A stretch of 64,000 bases of DNA from Escherichia coli (GTDB taxonomy: Bacteria > Pseudomonadota > Gammaproteobacteria > Enterobacterales > Enterobacteriaceae), in NCBI RefSeq assembly GCF_051903065.1, contig NZ_CP178438.1. One strand, written 5' to 3'. Under the pieces are notes generated by a model, which saw only the letters and a program-made list of their open reading frames with translations, ran no database searches and was not told where the DNA came from. The translations under genes and the position numbers were made by a program. Positions 1,351 to 26,785 of the stretch are shown in pieces; positions within the stretch are counted from its first letter, which is position 1, and every line of letters starts with the position of its first letter.

Positions 1351-1371
1351 GCCTCCTGCGGTATGAAGTGG

Positions 1372-1973
<602 letters not shown>

Positions 1974-2004
1974 GACAAATGAGCCCATTGGAATAAGTTA
2001 GAAA

Positions 2005-2760
2005 CTACATATCTGCCAACAACATCCCAGCCATACCATCCAGTCGCTTCTTAACCTTTTCCCAGCCCGGCATAACCTGCCCCATCAGACGGTAAAACTC
2101 CTCGCTGTGGTTGTGCTCAGCCACATGGCATAACTCATGTAGCAAAACATAATCGATACATTCTGAGGATGCCTTAACCAGCCATGGATTCAGGGTCAGA
2201 CAGCCTTTTGCTGAACAGTTGCCCCATTGCGTTTGCATCGCCCGCAGACGTATCGGAGGACGCTCACTGACCCAAAGGGTCTGCGGAATCAGTAAATCAA
2301 GCCTGCGCTGAAAAACATCTCTGGCACGTTCCCGATACCATTCAGCCAGCAAGGCTTTAATCTTTTCTGCCGATTTGTGTCTGACAGTCACTTCCAGACG
2401 CCCACGCAACATTTTCACTCGTTGCGGCACAGTAGCGTCTTCTGTCACTTTCAACTGATATTGCTTACCGAGATAATAATGGCTTTCTCCGCTGACATAC
2501 TGACGCGGAACAATGTGTATCTGTTGCTCCCTGAAATCACGCAGTTGCTGGTATATCCAGCGCCCACGTTTTTTCAGCGCAGACAATACCTCGTGCTCCG
2601 GTGTTTCAGGCGGTACAGAGGCCACAACCCGGCAGTCCGGATAAACCTTAATGAGCACCCTGCCCTTTACGACCTGACGCGGAACACACTGTACGACGAT
2701 GACCTCATCACCATAGACAATGCGTAACGCTTTCATTGATGGCGATTCTTTTTCACTCAT
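2005..2760 (-). CDS. HExxH metal-dependent hydrolase (DUF45/YgjP/SprT-like), last gene of the R-M operon
   Basis: HELCHVAEHNH motif; 4-bp overlap with hsdR stop. Confidence 0.65.
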   Translation of the reverse strand: MSEKESPSMKALRIVYGDEVIVVQCVPRQVVKGRVLIKVYPDCRVVASVPPETPEHEVLSALKKRGRWIYQQLRDFREQQIHIVPRQYVSGESHYYLGKQYQLKVTEDATVPQRVKMLRGRLEVTVRHKSAEKIKALLAEWYRERARDVFQRRLDLLIPQTLWVSERPPIRLRAMQTQWGNCSAKGCLTLNPWLVKASSECIDYVLLHELCHVAEHNHSEEFYRLMGQVMPGWEKVKKRLDGMAGMLLADM

Positions 2761-5700: not shown

Positions 5701-6044
5701 TCGACAAACTCCGTGACGGCGATACCGTAGAGCAGATGGTTATACATCCGCTCATTGGCTTTGAGCAGCCCTTCATTCAGCGCCGGAGAACAGACCTGTG
5801 ATATCAGGTTATCCAGTGCTTTTTCCGATAACTGGCAGGTTTTGCCACCCGCCATAAAGGAACGCTTCGACAGCTCTTCACGCAGAACCGGACGCAGCAC
5901 CACCTCATCCTGTTTATAGCCCCGGTAATCCATAATCTGTTTCGGAGATAAAAACGCCCAGCCGAGGCTGGTCAGTAACGTCAGTGCCGGAATTTTGGCG
6001 CTGTATTCTTCCTGGAATTTTGGCGTGTACGTCTGGTTCATCAT
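2757..6044 (-). CDS. hsdR: Type I restriction enzyme R subunit
   Basis: 1095-aa ORF with helicase motifs (GSGKS Walker A, DEGH box). Confidence 0.9.
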   Translation of the reverse strand: MMNQTYTPKFQEEYSAKIPALTLLTSLGWAFLSPKQIMDYRGYKQDEVVLRPVLREELSKRSFMAGGKTCQLSEKALDNLISQVCSPALNEGLLKANERMYNHLLYGIAVTEFVDGKKVNPTIALIDWEHPENNQFHFTEEFTVLRSGGVETRRPDIVCFVNGIPLAVIEAKSPAGHGKKGPTIDEGISQSIRNQFNDEIPQLFVYSQLLLSINGHDGRYGTCHTPMKFWAAWREEDITDAQMYALRNHPLSTEQIDALFEHRPVGDLNWYQQLIAGGELAVSGQDKLLISLLSPERLLEMTRFFTLFDKKTGKIVARYQQVFGIKRLLERISTRRPDGGREGGVIWHTTGSGKSYTMVFLSKALILHDSLKRCRIVVVTDRIDLEEQLSSTFASGGELAGKKDKANAMATSGQMLAKQIGSGKERIIFTLIQKFNSATKLPECVNTSPDIIVLIDEGHRSQGGENHVRMKLALPNAAFVAFTGTPLLKEDKTTNKFGPIVHAYTMQRAVEDKAVTPLLYEERIPDLEVNDRAIDAWFDRITDGLSEAQKADLKRKYARKGEVYSADDRIRLIALDIATHFSKNIDEGLKGQLACDSKISAIKYKKYLDEAGLFESAVVISPPDTREGNTEVDESKLPEVTKWWKDNVGTQDESVYTRNIISRFDTDEKLKLLIVVDKLLTGFDEPKNTVLYIDKPLKSHNLIQAIARVNRLHPLKKFGLLIDYRGILAELDTTIGKYQDLASRTQGGYDIKDIDGLYSAMSSEYKRLPHLYNQLWAIFAGVKNKNDTEQLRAVLVPKMEERDGEMVDIHQKTRDDFFEALTAFAGCLKVALQSATFFTDKSFTEQDRNLYKETVKQMSSLRQWAMQVSGEQVNYDDYAEQVKKLLDKHVTGVEVREPDGVYEVGKMGKSEKPEEWDNNKTRNETDIIKTRVTKMIEQELRDDPYAQEAFSRLLRMAIEEAEKLFDHPLKQYLLFREFEEQVEARKLSDIPDALAVNKHAQAYYGVFKKELPEVFVVKDVQVQDKWTKLAFEVDSIIVRAVAENSLNPQDIEKVVKTSLLPLLFTACREIGAGMNQVNRIVETIIQILRVGLMKS

Positions 6045-6093
6045 TAATCCTTTTCTTTCTGGCGCTACTCGCTACTGGTCACATGAAGATTCA

Positions 6094-6777
6094 TCAATGC
6101 AGACAGCACCTCTTAAATTTTTTACCGCTGCCACACGGACACGGGTCATTTCGCCCGGGCATGTTTTCTGCCCCCTTCACTGGAACAGGCCGGGATGATG
6201 CCTCTGACATTCTCACTGACAACCAGTACTGATAAAGTGCCAGTGCAGCAGGCTGAATAAGGGAAATACTTTTCTCAAACTGCTCTCCGGTCATTTTCTC
6301 AAGTACAGGAAAATTCTTCTCCACGCCATGAAGAGCGATCACTTCCAGAGAAGGCCGTAACTCACCGGGAAGACCAGACCAGTCATCCAGTGACTTTCCT
6401 TTCATATAACCAAAACACCACTCTTCCACAATGGTATATTTTTCCCCCTTTACCTCACGCTCATTGAAAATCGGTTCAAACTGTTCAGGGGCCTCATACA
6501 GGCAGCCAGCGATATCGTTCATATGCTGAAAACACAGCCCCACAAAACGCGTCATCTCTTTTTCGGTGGTCCAGCGAGGGTGGTAATCACCTCGCCCCCA
6601 GATAGCACTGAGCCAGGTATTAGGGGAAATCGTATTCGGGCCAGAGACAATCGCTGTCAGAAAGCCATCCAGCTCAGAGAAACAGAGCACAGAATCATCA
6701 TTGCCGTATTTCAGCAACACCTCTTCCAGCCAGTCGATTTCCCGGTCAATCAGCGGCCCGCTTTTCGTCAGTTTCAT
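6094..6777 (-). CDS. YecA-like UPF0149 protein with C-terminal SEC-C zinc motif, embedded between hsdS and hsdR
   Basis: 227 aa; C-terminal GRNDPCPCGSGKKFKRCC; start ATG overlaps hsdS stop (ATGA). Confidence 0.8.
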   Translation of the reverse strand: MKLTKSGPLIDREIDWLEEVLLKYGNDDSVLCFSELDGFLTAIVSGPNTISPNTWLSAIWGRGDYHPRWTTEKEMTRFVGLCFQHMNDIAGCLYEAPEQFEPIFNEREVKGEKYTIVEEWCFGYMKGKSLDDWSGLPGELRPSLEVIALHGVEKNFPVLEKMTGEQFEKSISLIQPAALALYQYWLSVRMSEASSRPVPVKGAENMPGRNDPCPCGSGKKFKRCCLH

Positions 6778-8012
6778 TCGGCAACCGCCTCATCGACCTT
6801 AACACGACGTTTGCCAGTCAGTAGCTGTTGCATCAGGGCTTTTTTCTCATCTCTCAGGCAGGCGAGTTTTTTCTCCAGCGTGGAGATTTCGGCATCGGCG
6901 ACGGACAGGACGGCGGCGATTTTTTGTTGTTCTCTTATACTGGGTAAGTCTAGTTCAAACTCTTTAACCATTCCGGCGTTTAGGTTGGACTGTGTACCTT
7001 GCTGGCCTTGTAGTTTTATTTTTTCTTTTAATGATGTAAGATAGAAATATAAAAACTCATAATTTAAACAATCTTTTGGTCTAATACCCAAGATTGCCTG
7101 CGAAGATGTTAAATTTACAGCAGCAATGCTGCATTCACCTATAGAAGCATACATAGCATAAAGAACCGAGTTTTTTGGATATATTCTTGCGGATGAACTG
7201 TTCAATCCTAATTCAGTCAGATATTTTTCAGTTGTAGCAATCCACTTTCCATTAGATGTCATATCAGAAATAGATACCCATGGGATATTCCCGCCATAAT
7301 ACTCTTCAACCGTTGATTTCGGAGTACCTCCACTGTTCATATCGGCTATCGCACCCAGTTTTACTCTCTTCCACTCCCCACTAAACCTCACCCCATTCTC
7401 ATCCAGCAAGCGTTTCTTCCCGGTAAGTAATTGCTGCATCAGGGCTTTTTTCTGCTGCTGACTATTGGCGAGCAGCTTTTCCGTCACTGAAATCGCGTTA
7501 TCCCAGGTTGACAAGATTTTGGCTATTTTCTTTTGTTCCGCCAGTGGGGGGAGTAATACAGGAAAACCGCAAACATCATCACGTGTAATATTAGGGTCTT
7601 TACGACTACTTGCCGCAAATTTCTTCCATAATTTTACATTCCCGTTTAAGTAATTCAGGATATATGCTGGTTCTGCTTTATCACGATCGAGTATAAGACC
7701 GGATAATGCTTGGTTTATTGCTGCCGGTATAGTGAGAAGTCCAGTTCTTCCGATCTGGTTAAAGCCTCCATACATCGCTACTAAAACAGTACCAACAGGA
7801 AATACAGAGCAAGATGTTTCTAAAAGGGCTGTGTCAGTAATTTTCTCATCAGTTGAGATAATTTCACCGTTATTTAGGTCTAATGTCTTTACCCATGGAG
7901 TACCAGCAGTAGAAAAATAACGCTCTCCCTCAGCCCTCAGCGGAGTAGATCCAGATTTAATTTTTGCTATGTCCGATAATTTGACATGTCTCCAGCCAGG
8001 TTTGAGCTTCAT
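6774..8012 (-). CDS. hsdS: Type I R-M specificity subunit
   Basis: Two target-recognition domains with repeated conserved spacer motif KKALMQQLLTGK(K/R)R. Confidence 0.85.
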   Translation of the reverse strand: MKLKPGWRHVKLSDIAKIKSGSTPLRAEGERYFSTAGTPWVKTLDLNNGEIISTDEKITDTALLETSCSVFPVGTVLVAMYGGFNQIGRTGLLTIPAAINQALSGLILDRDKAEPAYILNYLNGNVKLWKKFAASSRKDPNITRDDVCGFPVLLPPLAEQKKIAKILSTWDNAISVTEKLLANSQQQKKALMQQLLTGKKRLLDENGVRFSGEWKRVKLGAIADMNSGGTPKSTVEEYYGGNIPWVSISDMTSNGKWIATTEKYLTELGLNSSSARIYPKNSVLYAMYASIGECSIAAVNLTSSQAILGIRPKDCLNYEFLYFYLTSLKEKIKLQGQQGTQSNLNAGMVKEFELDLPSIREQQKIAAVLSVADAEISTLEKKLACLRDEKKALMQQLLTGKRRVKVDEAVAE

Positions 8013-9565
8013 AAGCTATCCTCTTGCATACTGAAGTTTTCTCTTTCACCATAACCCAACTCCTTCAGATAACCCGCCATCTCTGTTTCGAGTTTTGACA
8101 GTTCCACTTTCAATTGCTCACGTTCGGCACGCACAGCCAGCAAGTCAATCTCGTCTTCTTCCTCAAAGGTATCGACATAGCGCGGAATATTGAGGTTGTA
8201 ATCGTTGTCCTGAATTTCCTTCAGGCTGGCGAGATAGGCGTATTTCTCGACGTTATCGCCATCACGGTAGGTCTTGACGATTTTCTTAATGTTTTCTTCG
8301 CTAAGCTGGTTCTGGTTTTTACCTGCCTTGAATTCACGGCTGGCATCGATAAACAGCACCTTATCATCAACTTTCTGCTTTTTGAAAATCAGAATCGCAG
8401 CCGGAATCCCCGTACCGTAGAACAGTTTTTCCGGCAGACCAATTACCGCATCCAGCAAATTTTCGTCGATCAGTTTCTGGCGAATTTTACCTTCGCTGGA
8501 GCCACGGAAAAGCACACCGTGTGGCACAACTACGCCCATACGGCCAGTTCCCGGTTTCAGGGTTTCGATCATATGCGAGATAAAAGCGTAATCTCCTTTA
8601 GTCTTCGGCGGTACACCGCGACGAAAACGGCCAAACTTATCGTTCTCAGCCTCGTCATGGCCCCACTTATCCAGGCTGAACGGTGGGTTAGCGGTCACGA
8701 TATCAAACAGCATCAGGTCGCCATTTTTATCGAGCAGTTTCGGGTTACGAATGGTATCGCCCCACTCGATTTTATGGTTGTCTTCGCCGTGCAGGAACAT
8801 GTTCATTTTCGCCAGCGACCACGTGGAGCCAATCGCTTCCTGACCAAACAACGCATAATTACGGCTGTTATGTCCGGAGACAATTTTACGTCCGCACTTC
8901 ATCAATAACGAACCAGAGCCGCAGGCCGGATCGCAGATGGTATCACCCGGTTGCGGATCAAGCAGTTCAGCAATCAGGTCTGAAACTTCTGGTGGGGTAT
9001 AGAATTCCCCGGCTTTCTGCCCACCGCTGGCGGCAAAGTTTTTGATCAGATATTCGTAGGCATTACCGATAACGTCCAGCGTACCTACACGGCTTGGCTT
9101 CAGGTTGAGATCTTCACCGGCGAAGTCTTCCAGCAACTGACGCAGGATGGTGTTCTTCTGTTTTTCTTCACCCAAGCGGTCAGTGTTAAACGAAATATCC
9201 TGGAACACGCTTTTCCCGGCATCTTTCAGTTTGGTTCCGTTGGCTTCTTCGATTGCATGCAGAGCCTGATCGATACGCTCACCGTTACCCGGCTCATGGC
9301 GGCGTTCGTACAGCGCATAAAAGCTGGCACTTTTTGGCAGTACAAAACGCTCGTTGGCCATCATCGCTTCAATCAGTTCCGGCGCATCGCCATACTGTTC
9401 TTTGTATTCGTCATAGTGATCCTGCCAGACATCTGAAATGTACTTGAGGAACAGCATGGTAAGGATAAAGTCTTTATAGGTATCAGCACTGATGGTGCCA
9501 CGGAACGTATCACACGCGGCCCACAGGGCTTTGTTGATCGTGTCCTGACTGATTTTGTCGTTCAT
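8009..9565 (-). CDS. hsdM: Type I R-M N6-adenine DNA methyltransferase
   Basis: 518 aa; NPPF catalytic motif; AdoMet-binding DPACGSG; 4-bp overlap with hsdS. Confidence 0.9.
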   Translation of the reverse strand: MNDKISQDTINKALWAACDTFRGTISADTYKDFILTMLFLKYISDVWQDHYDEYKEQYGDAPELIEAMMANERFVLPKSASFYALYERRHEPGNGERIDQALHAIEEANGTKLKDAGKSVFQDISFNTDRLGEEKQKNTILRQLLEDFAGEDLNLKPSRVGTLDVIGNAYEYLIKNFAASGGQKAGEFYTPPEVSDLIAELLDPQPGDTICDPACGSGSLLMKCGRKIVSGHNSRNYALFGQEAIGSTWSLAKMNMFLHGEDNHKIEWGDTIRNPKLLDKNGDLMLFDIVTANPPFSLDKWGHDEAENDKFGRFRRGVPPKTKGDYAFISHMIETLKPGTGRMGVVVPHGVLFRGSSEGKIRQKLIDENLLDAVIGLPEKLFYGTGIPAAILIFKKQKVDDKVLFIDASREFKAGKNQNQLSEENIKKIVKTYRDGDNVEKYAYLASLKEIQDNDYNLNIPRYVDTFEEEDEIDLLAVRAEREQLKVELSKLETEMAGYLKELGYGERENFSMQEDSL

Positions 9566-9937
9566 GAATCATCCTGGTCTGAAGAAAAAGCTAGCGATGC
9601 AGGGCTTTGCATCTTAAAAATTGCGGTAAATGATACCGTAAGATGCCTCCCCTGACACGCCAATATCGCAGCATTCAGGTTTGCATCATCCCCGTAATAT
9701 CGACATGAGACAGACTGACACAACCTGGCTCGTCACTCGCTAAAAACCAATTATCTTAGTAAGATAGCATCCATATTAGCCATGGTGTAAAACTGCCGTT
9801 GGGGTAATGATGATCCATATATCACCCGTTCTGGTGTGTGGAGCTGACATGATCCATAATCGGCAACGTTGATGCCCTTTGATAGTAATGATGACCGTCA
9901 ATGTGATTCCCCTGCTGACTGGAGGTCTCCGGATAGA

Positions 9938-11104
9938 ATGAGTATTGCCAACTGCGCTATCGGCCCACTTTATGATGAGCAAATAAAAAAAACACTTATG
10001 TATGCTGACCATAAATTCAAGCGGCTAATGAATACACGAATGTCGTTACTCGAACATTTATCACCCCACTATGACTTATCTTCCATGTTCAGCTATGAGT
10101 TGGAGGGAAGAGTTTTTCGGATTAAATTGATCAAGCCTGAGATTAAATTATCTCGCCAGCAGTTGATCTTCTCCTCACTCTTTTTAGAGCATGATTTTCT
10201 AAAAGAATATAAAAAACACATCTCAAATACTCTACAAAAAACAATCAAACAGTGCATTAAAAAACACAAACAAAAAATCAAAATCGAGCCTTCTATTTTA
10301 GATTACATATCAGCGTCACCCCGCAATACGTCGAGTTATGTATTACATGAGATAGTTTTTGAATCTAAACATTGCGATGAAATTCGCAATATTAAAAATG
10401 ATATATTGCTTGATGAACTAACGTTGAATGGCCGGATCACTAACATTTCAAAATACATTAAAAATAGTCAAGATAAAATCGTCGAACATATAGAGTTCTG
10501 CACTCATAAATTTGTCAATATAAGTCGTAAGAACCGGCACATTTTCAACACCACCACAATATCTGGCAGAAAACCTAACATCACTGGTGTTTTACTTTGC
10601 CTTTCAGAATTGATAAGCAACCTGCATATTTACCCAACTGAAATTAATAATATAAGCAATGCCATAATATTAAGCATTGCATACTCTGTACTTCAACATC
10701 TTCAATCCGGAAGAGAAACAGAAAAAACCAAAACCTCTCCAGCACTGGATTTTATCCCCACCATCATCGCACCTCATGTTTTCTACCTGGCGAAACGCGA
10801 AAAATCCTCTCAATATAAATACATTGAAAAAGAATATCTTCTCGGCCAGTTACTTATATTTTTGATGTATAAAACAGTTTACTACTCGATTCATAGCATC
10901 AGGGTAAGCCGTAAGCATTTCTATAATGATATAAAACCAAAATTAGTGACACTAAAAAAAGAAAGCTTATTAAGCACCAATTTCATGAAAAATCGAAGAG
11001 AGATTAGTGGTGAAGTCTTTGGTGATGTTGGTAGTATTGAGGCTGATTTTCGAGAAATCAGTACACTGATTCATCGGCGGAAGGCATTATTTATTTCCTT
11101 TTAA
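9938..11104 (+). CDS. Hypothetical protein, AT-rich, Lys/Ile/Asn-rich, no recognised domain
   Basis: Long ORF (track 9869..11104); start at 9938 chosen where composition turns AT-rich; start uncertain. Confidence 0.45.
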   Translation: MSIANCAIGPLYDEQIKKTLMYADHKFKRLMNTRMSLLEHLSPHYDLSSMFSYELEGRVFRIKLIKPEIKLSRQQLIFSSLFLEHDFLKEYKKHISNTLQKTIKQCIKKHKQKIKIEPSILDYISASPRNTSSYVLHEIVFESKHCDEIRNIKNDILLDELTLNGRITNISKYIKNSQDKIVEHIEFCTHKFVNISRKNRHIFNTTTISGRKPNITGVLLCLSELISNLHIYPTEINNISNAIILSIAYSVLQHLQSGRETEKTKTSPALDFIPTIIAPHVFYLAKREKSSQYKYIEKEYLLGQLLIFLMYKTVYYSIHSIRVSRKHFYNDIKPKLVTLKKESLLSTNFMKNRREISGEVFGDVGSIEADFREISTLIHRRKALFISF

Positions 11105-11610
11105 CTTTAAAACGATAAAAACAAATGAGAGACTGAATAAATATCAGCCTCTCACATAGTTAATAAGTTTCAACTTTAATATCTGAGAAATCATTCTATC
11201 TGGGCCTTGTGGACATTAATCCTCCTGGCAACATACGACTCAAAGTTTCAGCCTTGTATAGCCATCATAAATAGTACAGGATTGGGTGCTGCTCGCATGT
11301 ATCATTCTGGTATTAATACTGATCATCAGGGGTAACTTGTATGTAATTTAAAAACCATCATATCTCAAATCTCACAATGCTCATATTTTAACCATAAAAA
11401 CTAACCGATTTACACCCGCCATATATTATCATAACTTATTGTATTTAAATGGCTATAAGCCTCTAACTCACTGATTACACCATTAAATTCAAGCCATATC
11501 CTTACGCAGATACAAGCTTGCCCCTGCTGCCATTCACGTTTTAGGATTACCTCGCTAACACGACATGCTACTTTTTAAATCAGTGTAATAATTCAAACGA
11601 GGATAAAATT

Positions 11611-12741
11611 ATGTTCGAGAAAATGAAAAACAATGTAACCCGTATACCGGGGAATTTAACAAAACTTAATCAATACCAAAAAGACATTGATCACCTGTCT
11701 AAACTATTTTCTGAACAGCAATTACTGGAACTAATGACGACTACCGAATCCGATCAAATATTGCAAATGAAGCCTGCTGTAGATATTCTTCATGTACTAT
11801 CTCCATCAGCATCTACTGCTAAGCATATCAATTTTTTTCAGCACGTCCCAGTGCTCGAACAATGGTTAAAAAAGGAGTGCACTGCCTTTAATTTACTGGC
11901 AGTACATTTCTATTCACAGCAATCCCGTAAAAATGTCATTCCGAAAGAAATCTGTATGCTACTGGATGCATTTATTAAAACTGAACTTTCATCTGCGGTT
12001 AATGGTAATAATAATGCCGAACTCCTTTCTTGTTTTCAAAACACGCTGGATAAAATGTGCAATACACTAACATTTATAGACCACACAGTTACGGAACAAT
12101 CAGGTCAAGTAGCAATGCTTGATTTCAGCGCAAAAATGCATGAATATACTGTTGAAATCAGGACCTTTTTGAAGTCTGAATACTGGCTAAACAAACTACC
12201 TAAGGATATTAATATTCCATCCATTGACCTATCCTGGCTTGTGTTTTGTTACTTTTGCTCTGAATATCTTTTTGTATTTATTCAAACAACGCTCAATACA
12301 ATGAAGGCAGGAAAAATCATTCGTGATAACTACCTTTATCATCCTAAAATGATTGCATTGATCATTTTATCTATGCTGCCTTATGAAGTCATTCATAACG
12401 ATGGATCACTGAGTGAGTTTAAAACGCCTTTAACCAGCCCTGATGAGTTCATAATCAAATCTATTTGCATTAAAGGTAAGCAAAACACTACAGGGCATAA
12501 AAAAGATATAGAACAATTGCTTCGTAAGACATATATCTATATTGCATTACTCTTAAACCCTGAGTGGGCACCATCTTCCAAGGAGTTGATTTCCTTTTTA
12601 TCAGGAAAGTCCACAGTGATAAGTGGTTCACTCAACTTCCAGTCAACCTCCAGTGGTCTGGGTGTTCAAACAAACAATATCACTCTTCTTAAGAATGAGG
12701 TTTACTTCGAAAAAATAGCGAACAAGATCATGAAACTGTAG
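11611..12741 (+). CDS. Hypothetical protein, AT-rich, no recognised domain
   Basis: 376-aa ORF with GAGGA RBS upstream of ATG. Confidence 0.5.
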   Translation: MFEKMKNNVTRIPGNLTKLNQYQKDIDHLSKLFSEQQLLELMTTTESDQILQMKPAVDILHVLSPSASTAKHINFFQHVPVLEQWLKKECTAFNLLAVHFYSQQSRKNVIPKEICMLLDAFIKTELSSAVNGNNNAELLSCFQNTLDKMCNTLTFIDHTVTEQSGQVAMLDFSAKMHEYTVEIRTFLKSEYWLNKLPKDINIPSIDLSWLVFCYFCSEYLFVFIQTTLNTMKAGKIIRDNYLYHPKMIALIILSMLPYEVIHNDGSLSEFKTPLTSPDEFIIKSICIKGKQNTTGHKKDIEQLLRKTYIYIALLLNPEWAPSSKELISFLSGKSTVISGSLNFQSTSSGLGVQTNNITLLKNEVYFEKIANKIMKL

Positions 12742-14419: not shown

Positions 14420-15476
14420 GGCTTTGTTGAATAAATCGAACTTTTGCTGAGTTGAAGGATCAGATCACGTATCTTCCCGACAACGCAGACCGTTCCGTGG
14501 CAAAGCAAAAGTTCAAAATCACCAACTGGCCCACCTACAATAAAGCCCTCATCAACCGTGGCTCCATAACTTTCTGGCTGGATGATGAAGCTATTCAGGC
14601 CTGGTATGAGTCAGCAACACCTTCTTCACGAGGCAGACCTCAGCGCTATTCTGACCTTGCCATCACGACTGTGCTGGTCATTAAACGCGTATTCAGGCTG
14701 ACCCTGCGCGCTGCGCAGGGCTTTATTGATTCCATTTTTTCTCTGATGAACGTTCCGCTACGCTGCCCGGATTACAGCTGTGTCAGCAGGCGGGCAAAGT
14801 CGGTTAATGTCAGTTTCAAAACGCCCACCCGGGGTGAAATCGCACACCTGGTAATTGATTCCACCGGGCTGAAGGTCTTCGGTGAAGGCGAGTGGAAAGT
14901 CAAAAAGCATGGCCAGGAACGCCGCCGTATCTGGCGTAAGCTGCATCTCGCCGTTGACAGTAAAACACATGAAATCATCTGCGCTGACCTGTCGCTGAAC
15001 AACGTTACGGACTCAGAGGCCTTCCCCGGGTTAATCCGGCAAACCCACCGGAAAATCAGGTCAGCCGCCGCCGATGGCGCTTACGATACCCGGCTATGTC
15101 ACGATGAACTGCGGCGTAAGAAAATCAGCGCGCTTATCCCTCCCCGAAAAGGTGCGGGTTACTGGCCCGGTGAATATGCAGACCGTAACCGTGCAGTGGC
15201 TAATCAGCGAATGACCGGGAGTAATGCGCGGTGGAAATGGACAACAGATTACAACCGTCGCTCGATAGCGGAAACGGCGATGTACCGGGTAAAACAGCTG
15301 TTCGGGGGTTCACTGACACTGCGTGACTACGATGGTCAGGTTGCAGAGGCTATGGCCCTGGTACGAGCGCTGAACAAAATGACGAAAGCAGGTATGCCTG
15401 AAAGCGTGCGTATTGCCTGAAAACACAACCCGCTACGGGGGAGACTTACCCGAAATCTGATTTATTCAACAAAGCC
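14420..15476 (+). mobile_element. IS903-like element (IS5 family), 1057 bp with terminal inverted repeats
   Basis: Terminal IRs ggctttgttgaataaatcg / cagatttattcaacaaagcc; transposase ORF; 9-bp flanking duplications. Confidence 0.85.
14452..15420 (+). CDS. IS5-family (IS903 group) DDE transposase
   Basis: ORF inside the IS; N-terminus QKFKITNWPTYNKALINRGSITFWLD; true start may be internal. Confidence 0.85.
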   Translation: MKDQITYLPDNADRSVAKQKFKITNWPTYNKALINRGSITFWLDDEAIQAWYESATPSSRGRPQRYSDLAITTVLVIKRVFRLTLRAAQGFIDSIFSLMNVPLRCPDYSCVSRRAKSVNVSFKTPTRGEIAHLVIDSTGLKVFGEGEWKVKKHGQERRRIWRKLHLAVDSKTHEIICADLSLNNVTDSEAFPGLIRQTHRKIRSAAADGAYDTRLCHDELRRKKISALIPPRKGAGYWPGEYADRNRAVANQRMTGSNARWKWTTDYNRRSIAETAMYRVKQLFGGSLTLRDYDGQVAEAMALVRALNKMTKAGMPESVRIA

Positions 15477-16065
15477 GCAGCAAACACAGCTGTAGACAAC
15501 GATGAAAAATATCTGTCCTTTGCATTAGTTCTCGCTATCACGATTATGGACAACTTAGTAAAGCTCATCGGCACAGATGGCTTCGTACTTTATACCTACA
15601 CCCTGCAGGACACGGCTACTGCTCGTGCTGTTTTTAATGAATTAGCCAGGCGTCTCAAAAATTTCAATCGTCAGGAGGAGGTCTACACCACCGATTCCCT
15701 CACCTTTCGAATGAAATACATTTACGGTGTTACCCTGTTCGAACATGATAGTAAATCTATCCTTAACCTCTTTGATAAGAAGGGTTATCCGGTATTGAGT
15801 GAATCAGGAGAACCCGGTTCTCTTGATGATATGTATCTTGACATTCAAGCCCGATTACATGGCGGCTACGCCTCAAAAAAGTTTCTTCATTTACATGAAC
15901 ATTGTCTGTTATCTGCACACGTTACCCCGTCTGTGGAAAAGACGCAACGCGGTATCCTGATTAAAGTAGGCAGGAAACTCGTTTCCTTTATCCATGTAGA
16001 TGATGAATCACACAAAACCGATATTTTCAAATCTGTAGTAAATGTTATTAAATCTTGATTCTTTA

Positions 16066-16093
16066 TGCCGGGACACAGCTCCCGGCATTTTTT
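16066..16093 (+). terminator. Hairpin plus T-tract just upstream of the piPolB start
   Basis: tgccggga-cacagc-tcccggca followed by tttttt. Confidence 0.5.
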
Positions 16094-16104
16094 CGGAGTT
16101 AACT

Positions 16105-18705
16105 ATGAGCAATAATTTGCAGGACATCCTCGCTGCCGCCTCGGGGTATCAGTCCGTGACTTCAGAGCCAGCGTTCAATCGTAAAAGACCTAAAACGCTT
16201 GATGATTATCCTGTGATACCACCTGCATCAAAAAAAGTATCTGTTATTTCAAGTGACCTGACACTCCATATCGGTTTTGATACCGAATATGTTTTCAACC
16301 CTGAAACACGACAGAATGATATTCTGTCATATCAGAGTTATGTTGTCTTACCCGATAATACAGGTATATCGAACATTATCTATCCACCTGACTCACAGAA
16401 AAAATCCCGGCTGTCTTTTAAGGAATTTCTCTGTCAAACGATTACACCGCTTCTTGAAACGGGTGTGATTACAAAATGGCCCGGTATTATTAATATATAT
16501 GCGCATTTCATTCGTGCGGATATCGCCTCCTTTGCCAATTTCTGGTCAGACTACAAAATTCTTCTGAAAGGAATACGCGGTACTGTCAGCAGCTTCAAAA
16601 ATCGTTACGGTATCGATTTTGATGAACAGCAGGAACGTCGCGTAAAGACTGAACAGATAATGTTTGACAAACGAACTTCCCCTCCGCGTTGCAGTAACGT
16701 AGCTTTCATCGATACACTGCTTATCACTCCCGGGGGTATGGGTCTGGCTGAATGTGGTGAATTACTGGGTCTTCCCAAACTCACCATTCCTGCACCTTAT
16801 TCCATAACCAATATGCGTGAATATCTTCTGGGCGACAGAGCAGGGTTTGAAGCCTATGCTCTGCGGGATGCCGAGATTGCGGTTCGTTATGCTTTACAGG
16901 TTCGCAATTTTTGCGCCCGGGAGCTGATGATTGATCGTGTCCCCGCCACCATCGGGGCGATGGCAGTTTCACGGTTCACCAAAACACTTAAAGAAAACAA
17001 TATGTCTCCTGAAGTCTGCCTTGGGACACACATTAAAACCCGTGAACTCTGGCTCACGGAGAAACAGGCATTCCGGACGATTAAAAACCCCGCCAGTGTT
17101 CCTTCAAGAGAGTTGTTTGAAACGTTCCCGATCAACTGTTACCACGGCGGACGCAATGAGTGTTTTATGATGGGGGTTACACCGTCTGATCACTGGTATG
17201 ACTACGATCTGGCTGGAGCGTATACCACCGGGCTATTAGATATCCTCACACCCGATTACGGGAACATCCGCCTCAGTAAAAATCCGGACGATTACTGTGG
17301 GCATGTAATGGGATTTGCGCTTGTCACATTTCGGTTCCCGGAATCAGTTCCCTATCCCAGCCTGCCGGTTCGGACCGATCAATATGGGTTATTCTTTCCA
17401 TTAAGTGGCGAATCATGGGCAACGGCACCTGAAATCGAACTTGCTCTGTCGCTCGGGGCAGAGATGACGATCCATAATGGGATCATCGTCCCCTGGATCT
17501 GTGACACCTCCCCACATAACAGCGAATCAACATCGGTGTTTCTTCCCTTTGTTCAACAGGTCCGTGAGAACCGTAATCGCCATATTAAAGGTTCTCTGGA
17601 GGAGAAATTCTGGAAAGAAATTGGCAACTCGCTTTATGGCAAACTTGCTCAGGGCCTTCGCGCCAAAACCGCCTTTGATACTGCCCGTGGATTAAACAGA
17701 TCCCTCCCACCATCATCGGTTACTCAGCCATTCTTTGCTGCGCATGTGACGGGATTTATCCGCGCCGTTGTCGGGGAACTCATGAATGCTTTGCCTTCTG
17801 ATTCATCGGTTGTCAGCGTCACAACCGATGGTTTTTTGACAAATTGCCCACTTGACAAGATAAACATGAGCGGTCCACTGTCTTCCCGCTTCCAGTCGCT
17901 GTGCGATATTGTTGATCCGGGTTCATCAATGTTGACATGTAAGCATGAGGTCAGCCAGCTTATCGCCATGAAAACCCGGGGGCAGTTAACCTATAGAGCT
18001 ATTCAGGGAAAACCTGTTGTTCATGCCAGGGCTGGCGTCAAACCTCCTGCCGATATTCCACGCAGTGACTATAACGACTATATGGTAGATCTTTACCTTA
18101 ATCGTTTACCCGGTCAGACGTTATCCCGAAGTACGTTGATATCAACGCGTGAGATGTGGCTCTCGGAAAGCGATCTGGTATCCCGGGAACAGGATATCCG
18201 TCTTAATCTGGAATTCGATTTCAAACGCCAGCCCGTACAGCCCGCCATGAATGAAGGGCATTTACTGATGTTTTCCCGCCCGTGGGATAATATGGAAGAG
18301 GCTCTGCAGCAACGCTCTCTTTTCGACGACTGGCGGCAAACGCATACACTGAAGACCCTGGCTGACTGGGATGACTGGTGTGATTTTCTCTATTGCCGGA
18401 CGGTGTTTTCTGATATGAAACTAAAAGTCGGAAGCAAACGTAGTGATGATATTTTAGTCAGACTATTTCTCCGGGCGCTGACTCAGTGCCAATGGGGGCT
18501 GATGCTGAAAGATAAAAAAAGTTATTCCTGTAAAGAGGTTGCTGAATGGCTGACGTCAGAAGGCTATTCAGTAACGGTGACTGATGTAAAAAATGCGGTA
18601 AGAGCAAAAATACCCCAAATGAAATTTAGTTCTGTAACACCGCGAATGAAGTCACTGATGGATATCATAGCCCGTAAATATCCGACATTCTGTCTTCCAG
18701 TCTGA
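16105..18705 (+). CDS. Family-B DNA polymerase of the primer-independent (piPolB) type
   Basis: Exo I FDTEY, Exo III YALRD, motif B NSLYGKL, motif C VTTDG, and KTRG in place of KxY; start taken at MSNNLQ after GGAG. Confidence 0.8.
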   Translation: MSNNLQDILAAASGYQSVTSEPAFNRKRPKTLDDYPVIPPASKKVSVISSDLTLHIGFDTEYVFNPETRQNDILSYQSYVVLPDNTGISNIIYPPDSQKKSRLSFKEFLCQTITPLLETGVITKWPGIINIYAHFIRADIASFANFWSDYKILLKGIRGTVSSFKNRYGIDFDEQQERRVKTEQIMFDKRTSPPRCSNVAFIDTLLITPGGMGLAECGELLGLPKLTIPAPYSITNMREYLLGDRAGFEAYALRDAEIAVRYALQVRNFCARELMIDRVPATIGAMAVSRFTKTLKENNMSPEVCLGTHIKTRELWLTEKQAFRTIKNPASVPSRELFETFPINCYHGGRNECFMMGVTPSDHWYDYDLAGAYTTGLLDILTPDYGNIRLSKNPDDYCGHVMGFALVTFRFPESVPYPSLPVRTDQYGLFFPLSGESWATAPEIELALSLGAEMTIHNGIIVPWICDTSPHNSESTSVFLPFVQQVRENRNRHIKGSLEEKFWKEIGNSLYGKLAQGLRAKTAFDTARGLNRSLPPSSVTQPFFAAHVTGFIRAVVGELMNALPSDSSVVSVTTDGFLTNCPLDKINMSGPLSSRFQSLCDIVDPGSSMLTCKHEVSQLIAMKTRGQLTYRAIQGKPVVHARAGVKPPADIPRSDYNDYMVDLYLNRLPGQTLSRSTLISTREMWLSESDLVSREQDIRLNLEFDFKRQPVQPAMNEGHLLMFSRPWDNMEEALQQRSLFDDWRQTHTLKTLADWDDWCDFLYCRTVFSDMKLKVGSKRSDDILVRLFLRALTQCQWGLMLKDKKSYSCKEVAEWLTSEGYSVTVTDVKNAVRAKIPQMKFSSVTPRMKSLMDIIARKYPTFCLPV

Positions 18706-18753: not shown

Positions 18754-19080
18754 TCACAGGCAATCGGCATCAAAACAGTGAAATAACTGCCGCGCGTCAG
18801 GATGGCCATTTACATGATAGATCCGCATGGCATGACAGGTGATACTCTGGAGATTAGCCGCCAGCCTTTTCCCCATATTCACCAGTATGCCGTGTGGTAT
18901 TTTACTGCTTGTACTGTTTACTGTCAGAGTAAAACAATTTGTTTCAACGCTGACCTCAATAAAATCATTTCCAAATAATGTACCGACAACCTGCCTGATT
19001 GTTTCTTCATAATCTGTCAGATCAATGACATCACGCCATCTCGCATTTACGAGTTGATACTTTCTGATATGTAAATACAT
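18754..19080 (-). CDS. Hypothetical protein (108 aa)
   Basis: ORF with AAAGGTGG RBS. Confidence 0.45.
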   Translation of the reverse strand: MYLHIRKYQLVNARWRDVIDLTDYEETIRQVVGTLFGNDFIEVSVETNCFTLTVNSTSSKIPHGILVNMGKRLAANLQSITCHAMRIYHVNGHPDARQLFHCFDADCL

Positions 19081-19299: not shown

Positions 19300-19410
19300 G
19301 GACAGGATGAGTCCACATGTTATTCGATGATTCCAGCAATGTTTTAATATATTGATAATTAATGAGTTAATTTTTTTCTCCGTCACAGTAAAAGTGGACT
19401 CATCCTGTCC
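19300..19410. repeat. Perfect 17-bp inverted repeat pair (19300..19316 and 19394..19410) around a 77-bp AT-rich spacer, upstream of the WYL regulator gene
   Basis: ggacaggatgagtccac and its exact reverse complement gtggactcatcctgtcc. Confidence 0.7.
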
Positions 19411-19459
19411 GTTACTTTGCTGAAAATATCCTCTTCGCTGGCATTAACCGGATAAACGA

Positions 19460-20362
19460 ATGGGTAAGCACGATAAACTTGGATATCGACTCGGATTGAT
19501 ATTAACTCGCCTGAACAATGGTGAGTCACTAGCCGTCCGGGAGTTATCTGAGGAATTTAACGTTTGCGAAAAAACTATCCGTCGCGATCTTACTCAGCGC
19601 CTGTCCTATCTTAATCTGATTCGACAAAATGGTCGCTATCGCCTGTCTGACGGTGTTCTCGGTCAACGCAGCAATGCTGATTTACGTCATTTCACGCGCA
19701 TCCTGGGTATTGAAGGGCTGTTCCCTCGCTGGGATGACAGACTACTGAGTATTTTGTTAGGTAACACGAAAAATAACCCGTTTCTGATAAAACAACGTCC
19801 ATACGAAAACTGCGGATCATTCATGTCAATTCTGAATGTATTATCCGATGCCATCCTGTCACAGAAGAAAGTAAATTTTAATTACAAAGATAAAGAGTTT
19901 CGGGCTGTTGAGCCATACAGACTGGTTAATGACAACGGATTGTGGTATCTCGCTGCCGCCCATGACAGTACATTAAAAAGCTTTGTTATCTCATCTGTCA
20001 AAGACGTTTGCATGAGTAATATCTCTTTCAGGATAATCCCCGAAATTAATGAAAAAATAGAAAAGACAGATGGTATCTGGTATAGCGAAGACCTTATCGA
20101 AGTTCTCATTTCAGTTTCCGCACATGTTGCTCCGTGGTTTACCCACCGTCATCTATTGCCAGGACAGGAAATAATTCATACTTCCCGGTCTGGCGATTTA
20201 CTGGTGATATCACGTGTAACACACACAGATCAGATAATGCCTTTAATGAAATACTGGATACCGGATGTCGAAGTAATACAACCGGCCTCAATCCGTCAAC
20301 AACTTGCTGAAGATATACAATCCGCACTGAAACGTTACACCCAGCCAAGTAACGCCCCGTAA
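19460..20362 (+). CDS. WYL-domain transcriptional regulator (HTH-WYL-WCX; YafY/BrxR/CapW-like)
   Basis: N-terminal HTH ([21 protein letters not shown]), central GLWYL signature. Confidence 0.75.
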
Positions 20363-20423
20363 TGACACGGATAATATAATTTTCATTAAGTGCTATTTTT
20401 ATAAGCTAAAAAATGGAGTTACC

Positions 20424-21242
20424 ATGAAAAAATGCCCGGTTCTTCTTGTTGTATCAGGGTTTCTGACCGAAAATGATATATCATGGTTTAACCGAATTAA
20501 AGCAGGGTGTGGCCTTGATGTCAGATACTATAAATGGGAATCGGCAAATCTACTATCCATATTAAGTTCTGACATAGCGAACAAGTGGGGGTTATATACT
20601 CTCTTCCCCCTGAGAACATCTCCTTTATTGTCATCAATCTCCATTCCATTTAAAGCGCGTCAGGCCTGGTATAATGCAACGAAAGCAGCAGTTAATAACA
20701 GAGAAAAATTAGCACACGTAATAAACGAGATATACGTTAAAGAAAAGCGTAATGTGATCATAATGGGTCATTCTTTAGGGACTCGATTAATAAACAATAC
20801 ATTACCCTATATAAAAAATGATAATATTCTCTTAACAATCTCTATGGCCGGAGCCACCCCAATAACAAGTTATACAGAGAACATAATGAAAATGGCTTAC
20901 GGTTCAAAAATGGGGCATTTAAATATCTACAGTGAACATGATAAAGTACTTAACACGATATACCCTCTCGTAGAGTCAGTAACGCCAATTGGGGTTCGGG
21001 AGGTGAGATTCAGACCTGCTCGGGTGATCAACTGGAAGTGGGATATTGGTCACACTGAATATATTACTTCAAACAGGATTGATTCATTAACACACTGGTT
21101 AAATGTTACCTGTGCCGATTTAGCTGATCCAGCCGTAGAAATCACTGACGACGACATGAAATCATTTCATGATATTATTAATCTTGCGAATTTAACATGT
21201 CATAAAAACACTGTCGCACCTAAATTAATATCATTTGAGTAG
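20424..21242 (+). CDS. Putative alpha/beta hydrolase (GHSLG nucleophile elbow)
   Basis: 272 aa, IIMGHSLGTR motif; GGAG RBS; 61 bp downstream of the WYL gene. Confidence 0.55.
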   Translation: MKKCPVLLVVSGFLTENDISWFNRIKAGCGLDVRYYKWESANLLSILSSDIANKWGLYTLFPLRTSPLLSSISIPFKARQAWYNATKAAVNNREKLAHVINEIYVKEKRNVIIMGHSLGTRLINNTLPYIKNDNILLTISMAGATPITSYTENIMKMAYGSKMGHLNIYSEHDKVLNTIYPLVESVTPIGVREVRFRPARVINWKWDIGHTEYITSNRIDSLTHWLNVTCADLADPAVEITDDDMKSFHDIINLANLTCHKNTVAPKLISFE

Positions 21243-21261: not shown

Positions 21262-21300
21262 TAACGGGAGTGTATATTTACTCCCGTTAAGTTTCATATT
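21262..21300. terminator. Stem-loop between convergent hydrolase and small HTH genes
   Basis: taacgggag-loop-ctcccgtta, T-rich downstream. Confidence 0.45.
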
Positions 21301-21372
21301 TTATAGAATTGATATGGGGTGATGCTGCCAACTTACTGATTTAGTGTATGATGGTGTTTTTGAGGTGCTCCA

Positions 21373-21648
21373 GTGGCTTCTGTTTCTATCAGCTGTCCCT
21401 CCTGTTCAGCTACTGAAGGCGTGGTGCGTAACGGTAAAAGTACTGCCGGACATCAGCGCTATCTCTGCTCTCACTGCCGTAAAACATGGCAACTGCAGTT
21501 CACTTACACCGCTTCTCAACCCGGTACGCACCAGAAAATCATTGATATGGCCATGAATGGCGTTGGATGCCGGGCAACCGCCCGCATTATGAGCGTTGGC
21601 CTCAACACGATTTTCCGCCATTTAAAAAACTCAGGCCGCAGTCGGTAA
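21373..21648 (+). CDS. insA: IS1 InsA
   Basis: 91-aa ORF. Confidence 0.85.
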
Positions 21649-22070
21649 CCTCGCGCATACAGCCGGGCAGTGACGTCATCGTCTGCGCGGAAATGGACGA
21701 ACAGTGGGGCTATGTCGGGGCTAAATCGCGCCAGCGCTGGCTGTTTTACGCGTATGACAGGCTCCGGAAGACGGTTGTTGCGCACGTATTCGGTGAACGC
21801 ACTATGGCGACGCTGGGGCGTCTTATGAGCCTGCTGTCACCCTTTGACGTGGTGATATGGATGACGGATGGCTGGCCGCTGTATGAATCCCGCCTGAAGG
21901 GAAAGCTGCACGTAATCAGCAAGCGATATACGCAGCGAATTGAGCGGCATAACCTGAATCTGAGGCAGCACCTGGCACGGCTGGGACGGAAGTCGCTGTC
22001 GTTCTCAAAATCGGTGGAGCTGCATGACAAAGTCATCGGGCATTATCTGAACATAAAACACTATCAATAA
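21567..22070 (+). CDS. insB: IS1 InsB reading frame (expressed as InsAB' by -1 frameshift)
   Basis: 167-aa ORF overlapping insA. Confidence 0.8.
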
Positions 22071-22100
22071 GTTGGAGTCATTACCTTGATATGGATTCGA

Positions 22101-22328
22101 TTAAAAATTTCGTCTAACTCGTTCCCTTATCAAACTTGCCAGCCTTACCCTTCCAGGTGAAATAGTTTCCGTTACAGTTTCAACTCTCAACAAATCACGC
22201 TGTCCGGTTCGGCGACTGACCGCGAAACGCTGACATATATCATTAACCGATACCGTATTACCGGTATACAGTTGAAGTAATATCCAGCACAGCCTTTCTG
22301 CGATCCTTTCACCGCGAGTTTTATACAT
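22101..22328 (-). CDS. Small HTH DNA-binding protein (75 aa)
   Basis: HTH-like VSVNDICQRFAVSRRTGQRDL; GAAGG RBS. Confidence 0.45.
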   Translation of the reverse strand: MYKTRGERIAERLCWILLQLYTGNTVSVNDICQRFAVSRRTGQRDLLRVETVTETISPGRVRLASLIRERVRRNF

Positions 22329-26698: not shown

Positions 26699-26785
26699 TG
26701 GTACCCGGAGCGGGACTTGAACCCGCACAGCGCGAACGCCGAGGGATTTTAAATCCCTTGTGTCTACCGATTCCACCATCCGGGC
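26699..26785 (-). tRNA. leuZ: tRNA-Leu (anticodon UAA)
   Basis: 87-nt match to recalled E. coli leuZ, CCA end encoded. Confidence 0.9.

Follow-up and report, generated by a model that had tools for sequence, protein, structure and literature searches.

Transcription factors that combine a winged helix-turn-helix (wHTH), a WYL and a WCX domain include the activators DriD and PafBC, which depend on single-stranded DNA (ssDNA), as well as the repressors BrxR and CapW. CapW represses an adjacent immune operon and is released by ssDNA (PMC11662680), and the DriD box, ATACGAC-N7-GTCGTAT, occurs in promoters that have no −35, where it overlaps the −35 position and keeps a constant distance to the −10 element (PMC13004042). 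A WYL-domain gene also belongs to the conserved core of gammaproteobacterial pipolins, together with piPolB, an IntSXT-type recombinase gene and DUF2787, and these elements have been described as defence islands (PMC11551731; Mateo-Caceres and Redrejo-Rodriguez, Nucleic Acids Research 2024). Here, we analyse the WYL gene of one such core and the alpha/beta-hydrolase gene that follows it, in a 64-kb stretch of Escherichia coli chromosome (contig NZ_CP178438.1; hereafter the window) that is 100% identical to E. coli 23CRST027. The reading we favour, tentatively and at somewhat less than an even chance, is that the two genes make up a WYL operon of the pipolin core that responds to ssDNA and regulates itself, and in which a lipase-like hydrolase has been captured under DriD-like activation.

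Both genes are located within the core of a pipolin (piPolB element), which adjoins tRNA-Leu, a setting that the first-pass annotation of this DNA overlooked; its WYL gene is thus the already published pipolin core gene (PMC11551731). That annotation had described a HTH-WYL gene with a GLWYL signature, a spacer of 61 base pairs (bp), a protein of 272 amino acids (aa) with a GHSLG motif and a terminator hairpin, and all of these are found in place. Homologues exist for each of the two proteins, so both genes are real. The components are as follows:

19460-20362, plus strand: gene of the wHTH-WYL-WCX regulator, 300 aa (Pfam, PADLOC WYL models, PDB profile matches and AlphaFold2 (AF2) model)
20415-20418, plus strand: GGAG ribosome-binding site (RBS) of the hydrolase gene, inside the 61-bp spacer
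20424-21242, plus strand: gene of a DUF726-type alpha/beta serine hydrolase, 272 aa, with a GHSLG elbow and the triad Ser117/Asp173/His210
21262-21289, plus strand: hairpin resembling an intrinsic terminator, with an 11-bp stem, which closes the hydrolase cassette

The open reading frame (ORF) of the regulator carries the sequence NGLWYLAAA, and Pfam recognises HTH_DeoR (residues 10-61, 5.6e-8), WYL (124-183, 2.5e-10) and WCX (212-290, 1.7e-9) domains in this order, which is also the layout of the AF2 model (mean predicted local distance difference test score, pLDDT, 75.6); the WYL models in PADLOC match as well. A profile built from 16 relatives and searched against the PDB retrieved PafBC (7.6e-11) and DriD (3e-9 to 7e-9), and at E <= 1 it found neither a BrxR chain (7qfz, 7t8k) nor a CapW chain (7tb5, 7tb6, 9c5g). 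Foldseek likewise ranked DriD first (8tp8; 2e-12), followed by PafBC (4e-10), BrxR (1.5e-7) and CapW (6.5e-7). The closest similarity in both sequence and structure is therefore to DriD and PafBC, and membership of the BrxR/CapW clade is not seen in the sequence. Four of the six ssDNA-contact positions of DriD are occupied by the same residue type in the WYL protein and two differ; the four are Y168, R176, Y192 and R204 of DriD, which align with Y142, K145, Y163 and K173. Judged by sequence and model, the protein thus appears to be more of a DriD/PafBC-like than specifically a BrxR/CapW-type regulator, and ssDNA would be the ligand of its WYL domain. The first-pass annotation had invoked the BrxR/CapW type, an assignment that gives way to the DriD-like one on three counts, namely the profile search, the Foldseek ranking and the promoter geometry described below. 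Distant relatives of the WYL protein lie upstream of type I restriction-modification (R-M), IetA-like ATPase and PDC-M15A genes.

The 379-bp region 5' of the WYL gene holds a perfect inverted repeat of 17 nucleotides (nt), whose second arm occupies 19394-19410, and each arm is itself a 15-bp palindrome of the form GGAC-N7-GTCC. These palindromes, the predicted promoter and the gene on the other side of the region are listed here:

19300-19314: distal operator-like palindrome, GGACAGGATGAGTCC, GGAC-N7-GTCC
19396-19410, plus strand: proximal operator-like palindrome, GGACTCATCCTGTCC, at the −35 position
19422-19427, plus strand: predicted −10 hexamer, GAAAAT, of the WYL-hydrolase promoter, with no recognisable −35
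18754-19080, minus strand: 108-aa ORF, divergent from the WYL gene

No other sequence in the 64-kb window matches with at most two mismatches, and both palindromes are upstream of the WYL gene. We compared them across 11 loci of enterobacteria, with WYL proteins that share 64-98% identity with that of the window (loci from other genomes are designated by L numbers). The proximal site is present in 11/11 loci, between −63 and −76 from the WYL start codon, and the distal site, in inverted orientation, in 10/11, between −146 and −171. The sites persist across lineages that share 64-72% WYL identity while their flanks are unalignable, and they are spaced by either 83-85 bp or 95-96 bp, a difference of one helical turn. 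An RNA stem or a known RNA was also considered for the 17-nt inverted repeat and rejected: Rfam gave no match, and in other lineages the central bases differ between the arms, which makes the pairing imperfect, while the outer GGAC/GTCC half-sites are fixed. Operators for a protein fit better than an RNA stem because each arm is itself palindromic.

The position of the proximal site is constrained relative to the predicted promoter. In L002, L007, L075, L072, L009, L013, L014, L010, L012, L024 and L073, a spacer of exactly 11 nt, variable in sequence, separates it from GAAAAT, GATAAT or CATAAT, and this spacer length is kept in six lineages. The promoter has neither a usable −35 nor a conserved extended −10, and a generic sigma-70 scan, for which a −35 is obligatory, calls no promoter upstream of the WYL gene. 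The distal site, too, is followed on the minus strand by 11 nt and then by TAAGTT (or TACGTT), directed toward the 108-aa ORF. In silico, the arrangement is that of a DriD-type promoter, with a site over the −35 position, a fixed distance to the −10 and no −35 of its own.

Several features suggest that the hydrolase gene may belong to the transcription unit predicted to start at this promoter. The gap between the two genes is exactly 61 bp and contains no terminator-like site, and a sigma-70 scan finds no promoter within it. In a divergent E. coli pipolin lineage (L075), whose hydrolase is only 66% identical, the RBS segment AATGGAG(T/C)TACCATGAAA is kept while the rest of the spacer has diverged. 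The terminator stem, AACGGGAGT/ACTCCCGTT, is kept in the same lineage despite diverged flanks; in the window it folds with −20.3 kcal/mol (z = −4.2), and 0/200 shuffled sequences are as stable. The hydrolase gene is the only co-directional partner of the WYL gene in the window, as had been noted before, since the 18754-19080 ORF is divergent and an insertion sequence (IS), IS1, follows the terminator. The common strand, the lack of a terminator between the genes and the restriction of operator-like palindromes to the region 5' of the WYL gene suggest an operon with the WYL gene first, from which we infer co-transcription of the pair.

Comparison of related pipolins suggests that a small exchangeable slot lies directly downstream of the WYL gene, inside the 'conserved' core. 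In variant B (Buttiauxella, Enterobacter, Intestinirhabdus and some E. coli), the slot holds a 135-146-aa protein and a GTPase, whose start codons overlap the preceding stops, the WYL stop overlapping the next start by 8 nt. Variant C (Cedecea, Mangrovibacter and E. coli G3/10) has a 144-149-aa protein alone, and an Aeromonas pipolin carries two unrelated proteins at this position. DNA homology between variants A, with the hydrolase, and B is lost ~24 nt short of the WYL stop and is regained immediately after the hydrolase terminator, so that a ~1.0-kb cassette (RBS, hydrolase and terminator) stands in place of ~2.6 kb. The 135-154-aa family has diverged in step with the WYL gene and probably occupied the slot originally, and neither the hydrolase nor its C-terminal tail showed any homology to these proteins. 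In the L075 lineage, the C-terminal half of the WYL protein and the hydrolase have both diverged to 66% identity. The right border of the slot is formed by the following gene:

22101-22328, minus strand: stand-alone DeoR-type HTH protein, 75 aa

This protein is kept in all pipolin variants (42-100% identity), its homologue in E. coli G3/10 is annotated as a 'DeoR family transcriptional regulator', and it is a paralogue of the N-terminal domain of the WYL protein, both matching phrog_13105 (5.6e-8). It could compete with the WYL protein for the same operators. Its gene is the last of a minus-strand core operon that is convergent on the hydrolase gene.

Just downstream of the 75-aa HTH gene, the sister pipolins (variants B and C, and L012) contain a third operator, GG(A/T)CATAACCTGTCC, which is followed by exactly 11 nt and then by TACCCT, TAGGCT or TATGCT (TAnnnT), and which is aimed at one or two genes for small signal-peptide proteins within the slot. 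It is missing from the variant found in the window. Its positions are:

L072, 10359-10373, minus strand: third operator
L009, L013 and L014, 13081-13095, minus strand: third operator
L010, 12248-12262, minus strand: third operator
L012, 9350-9364, minus strand: third operator
L024, 12251-12265, minus strand: third operator
L073, 9241-9255, minus strand: third operator

Because the combination of site, 11 nt and TAnnnT recurs at this third promoter inside the slot, the slot genes are candidate targets of the regulator. Taken together, the in-silico evidence is good that the palindromes are operators of the WYL protein and that the genes around the WYL gene are its targets, and there is moderate evidence, from promoter sequence, that the protein activates rather than represses. 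Neither the window nor L002 has such operators near piPolB or the recombinase genes, and with none nearby, direct control of replication or excision genes by the regulator finds no support in the lineage of the window.

The hydrolase ORF carries the sequence IIMGHSLGTRL. Pfam reports DUF726 (PF05277; 1.5e-6), LCAT (3.3e-5) and DUF900 (2e-3), of which the DUF726 match is weak and partial (27.8 bits), and the RefSeq label is 'DUF726 domain-containing protein'. The AlphaFold model (pLDDT 80.6; predicted template-modelling score 0.82) is a canonical alpha/beta hydrolase, and Foldseek places it in the DUF726 family, so that fold and domain match agree. Ser117, Asp173 and His210 are unchanged in 24/24 family members, which are 21-88% identical. 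The structural neighbours include lipase/phospholipase A1 (PLA1) enzymes and many esterases; the profile and structure searches that had been proposed for this protein thus yield a DUF726-type alpha/beta hydrolase with lipase/PLA1 neighbours. The only characterised prokaryotic DUF726-annotated enzyme that we found is 'cinquedea', a bactericidal phospholipase A from Haloferax, which has also been likened to a hornet enzyme. Because of these structural neighbours and of cinquedea, the protein is most probably a lipase or a phospholipase-A-like esterase, as far as its model and this analogy can be followed.

A signal peptide or lipobox was considered and rejected, residues 6-10 forming the first beta-strand of the model, and because the protein has no signal peptide, it is presumably cytoplasmic. 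A membrane anchor in the insert at residues 39-81 was rejected too, as its best 19-residue stretch reaches only 0.88 on the Kyte-Doolittle scale and is not transmembrane-like; in most family members, the hydrophobicity of this insert exceeds that of the protein as a whole, which is weak evidence at best. Residues 218-272 form a lineage-specific C-terminal helical tail. Compared with the 66%-identical allele, the ratio of nonsynonymous to synonymous substitution rates (dN/dS) of the hydrolase is 0.06, and the gene is therefore under purifying selection.

The family is rare, with 82 clusters at E <= 1e-3 among 1.84 billion representative proteins. No NCBIfam model matches the hydrolase, PHROGs contains a single function-less family that is essentially this same hydrolase, and a PDB search by sequence, with the hydrolase as lone query, gave chance-level matches only. 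We inspected 11 contexts of family members, as single-protein look-ups rather than a systematic census. One, that of the 66%-identical E. coli allele, is a pipolin in which the gene stands beside a frameshifted WYL gene; the other 10/11 are solitary and without a WYL gene. In a lambdoid prophage (L077-L079), a 259-aa relative (P0014, 34% identical) directly follows the Q antiterminator in the accessory ('moron') region and is followed by an N6/N4 methyltransferase, RexA/RexB and lysis genes. On two metagenomic contigs (L091 and L092), a 235-aa relative (P0025, 33% identical) starts 15 nt downstream of csm5 (PADLOC Csm5, 1.8e-28) and precedes STIV_B116-like and DUF1232 genes; the slot after csm5 is the usual position of ancillary effectors of type III CRISPR systems. 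The remaining relatives are found in prophage-like regions and integrase islands, one of them beside a type I R-M system, and the rest on uninformative short contigs.

The hydrolase is thus cargo of mobile elements, sometimes next to defence genes, and not a general partner of WYL regulators. This bears on the co-occurrence of the two genes, which the first-pass annotation had proposed to check: they do not form a conserved two-gene system, being paired only in E. coli/Citrobacter pipolins. The same annotation had held that its proposal would fail if the hydrolase were a common housekeeping esterase without links to WYL genes elsewhere; the enzyme is not housekeeping, as it is rare and mobile, yet neither is it linked to WYL genes elsewhere. 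Its suggestion of a WYL regulator in charge of a defence operon also stands in part, given the operon-like layout, the exchangeable slot and the distant relatives that precede R-M, IetA-like and PDC-M15A genes, on the one hand, and a hydrolase that PADLOC does not match, on the other.

Among 5,426 complete E. coli genomes, 201 carry the WYL gene and 182 a full-length hydrolase gene, always within a pipolin; the intact pair was counted 183 times. An intact hydrolase ORF stands beside a disrupted WYL gene in several strains: the WYL gene of 1008S13 is interrupted by IS1, that of PCP06101 has an IS3, that of M9 is split and that of L075/L076 is frameshifted. The regulator can therefore be lost while the hydrolase is intact, which argues against a toxin held down by an essential repressor and is what would be expected if loss of an activator silences the operon. 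The WYL protein of L075/L076 (7605-9001), a divergent E. coli pipolin, shares 90% identity with that of the window over its N-terminal 145 aa and only 66% over its C-terminal 155 aa, with a frameshift at the junction. This looks like an internal recombination breakpoint that left a WYL pseudogene upstream of an intact, 66%-identical hydrolase.

In the model that we favour, the WYL protein would act as a DriD/PafBC-like wHTH-WYL-WCX dimer that binds the two 15-bp GGAC-N7-GTCC palindromes, with the proximal one substituting for a −35 at 11 nt before the −10. ssDNA building up through DNA damage, the replication of phages or prophages, or the replication of the pipolin itself would be bound by the WYL domain, and the ssDNA-bound protein would then turn on its own gene and whichever gene fills the downstream slot. 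In the E. coli/Citrobacter lineage, this slot would have been filled by a self-contained cassette of RBS, gene and terminator for a cytoplasmic DUF726-type Ser-Asp-His hydrolase, which could serve as an induced effector, for example by damaging the membrane and thereby causing growth arrest or aborted infection. A role of the hydrolase in defence or abortive infection is plausible by analogy, because of the element, the regulator family and some of the neighbours. We infer activation rather than repression, a lipid substrate and any defence role. A bolder extension, which we consider unlikely, is that the core contains a plug-in slot under a DriD-like ssDNA activator, that the hydrolase is a new single-gene, cytoplasmic, phospholipase-like effector that ssDNA turns on upon phage attack or DNA damage and that acts in abortive infection or against invaders, and that its relatives next to RexAB, type I R-M and csm5 are unrecognised defence-associated lipases.

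A number of observations weigh against this model. The spacer is AT-rich and could hide a promoter of the hydrolase gene, and the 66% lineage indeed has TTGAAT-17 nt-TAGAAT there. The linkage itself is confined to the E. coli/Citrobacter pipolin lineage: in a scan centred on WYL genes (one genome per species, 65 loci; tblastn and the family hidden Markov model on every ORF), the hydrolase adjoins the WYL gene only in two Citrobacter pipolins, which are near-identical to the E. coli element, and the adjacency may be an accident of insertion at a permissive site. With regard to defence, the hydrolase matches no PADLOC-DB v2 model (E <= 0.01) and no sequenced phage, and among plasmids it has one weak match, in Vibrio; defence-related neighbours occur in only 3-4 of the ~11 contexts, and most other neighbours tested have no PADLOC match. 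Of the 302 E. coli genomes with any hydrolase sequence, ~120 hold partial copies only, most of those listed keeping just the 3' half (nucleotides 425-819), and IS3 interrupts the gene in several enterotoxigenic E. coli (ETEC) strains. At the single such locus inspected (L074, E. coli 17MR471), a deletion associated with IS1 has eliminated the WYL gene together with the catalytic 5' half of the hydrolase gene, and piPolB, the 108-aa ORF and the right-hand core are retained. Between near-identical E. coli/Citrobacter alleles, dN/dS is 0.3-1.0 for the hydrolase, compared with 0-0.3 for the WYL gene, and the recent hydrolase substitutions cluster in the tail at codons 237-265 (A237D, I240L, M245I, S247L, H249N/Y, N253D, L257S and C259H), which could reflect diversifying selection or relaxed constraint. 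Finally, the BrxR and CapW repressors share the fold of the WYL protein, so that the sequence is compatible with activation and with repression.

This last point is the core of the most similar rival, in which a BrxR/CapW-like WYL protein would block its own promoter at the palindromes until ssDNA freed the operon, with the same outcome and the opposite sign. We regard it as doubtful, if a serious contender. The Foldseek matches to BrxR and CapW are significant, CapW offers a precedent for an ssDNA-released repressor of a neighbouring immune operon (PMC11662680), a protein bound over the −35 position would also block RNA polymerase, and the WYL relatives that precede type I R-M, IetA-like and PDC-M15A genes do so in the way of BrxR-family regulators. 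However, the profile search finds PafBC and DriD (1e-9 to 1e-11) and neither repressor, a promoter with no usable −35 or conserved extended −10 would be weak even when de-repressed, and the strict 11-nt spacing, seen at three promoters, is the published signature of activation by DriD. The natural WYL-null backgrounds with an intact hydrolase, at least four in number, are also easier to explain if loss of the regulator silences the operon. We accordingly favour DriD-like activation over CapW-like de-repression, both of which predict that damage or phage would induce the hydrolase.

It is also conceivable, though unlikely, that the adjacency is incidental, the WYL protein being a housekeeping regulator of itself or of element functions and the hydrolase an independent cargo with its own promoter in a recombination-tolerant gap. 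The compact unit with its own RBS and terminator, the solitary family members without WYL neighbours, the promoter-like hexamers in the AT-rich spacer of the 66% lineage and the strains that keep an intact hydrolase beside a disrupted WYL gene all fit this explanation. It is at odds with the left breakpoint of the cassette, which falls inside the 3' end of the WYL gene and leaves no room for a terminator, with the spacer of the window, in which no promoter is predicted, with the slot genes of sister pipolins, which are translationally coupled to the WYL gene or have a WYL-type operator of their own, and with the joint divergence of the WYL C-terminal half and the hydrolase in the L075 lineage. 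A toxin-immunity pair, in which the hydrolase would be a toxic lipase and the 108-aa protein its immunity protein or antitoxin, both produced from the intergenic region that they share, as in Tle/Tli lipase-immunity pairs, seems quite improbable to us. By tblastn, the 108-aa ORF is found in L001, L002, L007, L008, L074-76, L085 and L087, all of them pipolin lineages with the hydrolase, and no variant B or C locus has a match, so that the two genes co-occur in variant A and the L075 lineage and are both missing from B and C; in addition, the distal operator has a possible −10 (TAAGTT or TACGTT) in its direction. Yet no 108-aa homologue stands beside any other member of the hydrolase family, the ORF is kept where the catalytic half of the hydrolase is deleted, the L075 lineage has not kept the minus-strand −10, and the 108-aa protein matches no family of known function (no PHROGs or NCBIfam match, and in PADLOC only a weak HamB match, E 0.0032). 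To an ordinary housekeeping esterase or a decaying gene we give almost no credence, distribution and context having largely refuted it. The generic fold with its many esterase neighbours, the raised recent dN/dS and the frequent deletions and IS insertions in E. coli would speak for it; the small number of clusters, the restriction of full-length copies to pipolins in 182 of 5,426 genomes, the dN/dS of 0.06 over deep divergence with an invariant triad, and the relatives in prophages and islands speak against it.

The identification of the element rests on the following landmarks:

16042-18705: piPolB, 887-aa ORF, annotated as type-B DNA polymerase
26699-26785: tRNA-Leu(taa), the tRNA integration site next to the pipolin core
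21318-22085: IS1, 768 bp, flanked by the 9-bp target duplication TTGATATGG at 21309-21317 and 22086-22094

With the annotated polymerase and a synteny as in published E. coli pipolins, the island is a pipolin, and it has the IntSXT-type recombinase, DUF2787 and WYL genes of the core beside the tRNA integration site, in addition to piPolB and an IntP2-type recombinase with an excisionase. Around the pair, the island has a low guanine-cytosine content (~0.43). Its order runs from type I R-M genes, a tyrosine recombinase, an excisionase, an IS5 copy, a 170-aa ORF and the 887-aa family-B DNA polymerase, through the 108-aa ORF (minus strand), the WYL gene, the hydrolase gene and the IS1 copy, to the 75-aa HTH gene, DUF2787, three small ORFs and the second recombinase (all on the minus strand), a 246-aa ORF and tRNA-Leu. 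No repeat of the tRNA-Leu region that could represent the left attachment site (attL) was found elsewhere within the 64-kb window, and the left end of the pipolin probably lies beyond the window start. IS1 begins 28 bp past the hydrolase terminator, outside the operon, and is missing from otherwise identical pipolins, for example L002.

Further observations concern the remainder of the island and related loci. The distal cargo (1-12741) encodes a DUF262 protein, an M48 metallopeptidase, a type I R-M system (hsdR, hsdS and hsdM) whose hsdR and hsdS are separated by an inserted YecA/YgfB-like gene, and two hypothetical proteins of ~400 aa. The IS5-family copy (14452-15420) lies between the excisionase gene and the ORF upstream of piPolB, which is 170 aa long here and annotated with 212 aa (639 nt) in the IS-free strain 214-4. 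In E. coli G3/10 (L073, 1-9981), the WYL homologue of a core-related element without piPolB is preceded by five TIR-domain or FRG genes and an 'ABC-three component system', and a gene of the lecithin retinol acyltransferase family lies between the small HTH gene and DUF2787. Finally, in Campylobacterota (L030, L033, L036 and L037), WYL homologues of ~30% identity are followed, after a ~345-nt gap, by genes for a serine protease of the DegS/HtrA type and an alpha/beta-hydrolase esterase that resembles YqiA. This is a second, unrelated WYL-hydrolase neighbourhood, whose protease and esterase may be housekeeping enzymes.

Pipolins have recently been recognised as defence islands, and the locus offers a testable circuit for the core WYL gene, comprising an operator sequence, a predicted promoter of fixed geometry and a likely ssDNA signal. 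Should the hydrolase be an inducible effector that targets membranes, it would add a rare family of DUF726-type lipases, absent from PADLOC, to the effectors of bacterial immunity; should it be passenger cargo, the analysis of the regulator would stand and the pairing would be unremarkable. The regulators described upstream of such effector genes, BrxR and CapW, are repressors, whereas the WYL protein may be an activator of the DriD kind.

Compared with known lipases, the hydrolase resembles DUF726/TMCO4-type proteins in its DUF726/DUF900 Pfam signal, its Foldseek placement, the GxSxG elbow and the Ser-Asp-His triad. CapV, the patatin phospholipase of cyclic-oligonucleotide-based anti-phage signalling systems (CBASS), differs from it in fold (patatin) and in its allosteric activation by a nucleotide signal. 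Cinquedea, to which it is likened by DUF726 annotation, is secreted, whereas the hydrolase lacks a signal peptide. The Tle lipases of the type VI secretion system are likewise secreted and are paired with immunity proteins, whereas control would be transcriptional here. In the published description of pipolins, exchangeable cargo is placed in a distal module (PMC11551731), whereas the present slot is inside the core. That study makes no mention, in its main text, of a DUF726 hydrolase or of a variable slot directly downstream of the WYL gene, and a 2020 survey of E. coli pipolins mentions no hydrolase or DUF726.

Among the regulators, BrxR and CapW, which are found upstream of bacteriophage exclusion (BREX), CBASS, R-M and other defence operons, share with the WYL protein the fold, the position as first gene of an operon and, through its distant relatives, the proximity to defence genes; moreover, CapW senses ssDNA (PMC11662680) and the pipolin is a recognised defence island (PMC11551731). 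They differ from it in the absence of a sequence match at E <= 1, in a promoter that fits activation here and in a downstream hydrolase that is no recognised defence system. DriD of Caulobacter crescentus, by comparison, is only ~15% identical to the WYL protein and is a chromosomal master regulator, whereas the WYL protein is encoded on a mobile element and has an apparently tiny regulon (two sites in 64 kb); furthermore, DriD activates a divergent operon and not driD, whereas the site described here is aimed at the gene of the regulator itself. Nevertheless, DriD has the same domain order, is the best structural match and is among the best profile matches, and the operator core GAC-N7-GTC is common to the WYL sites and the DriD box. 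DriD promoters with two sites or with divergent genes are known (PMC13004042), and DriD, too, turns on a death effector, the endonuclease BapE.

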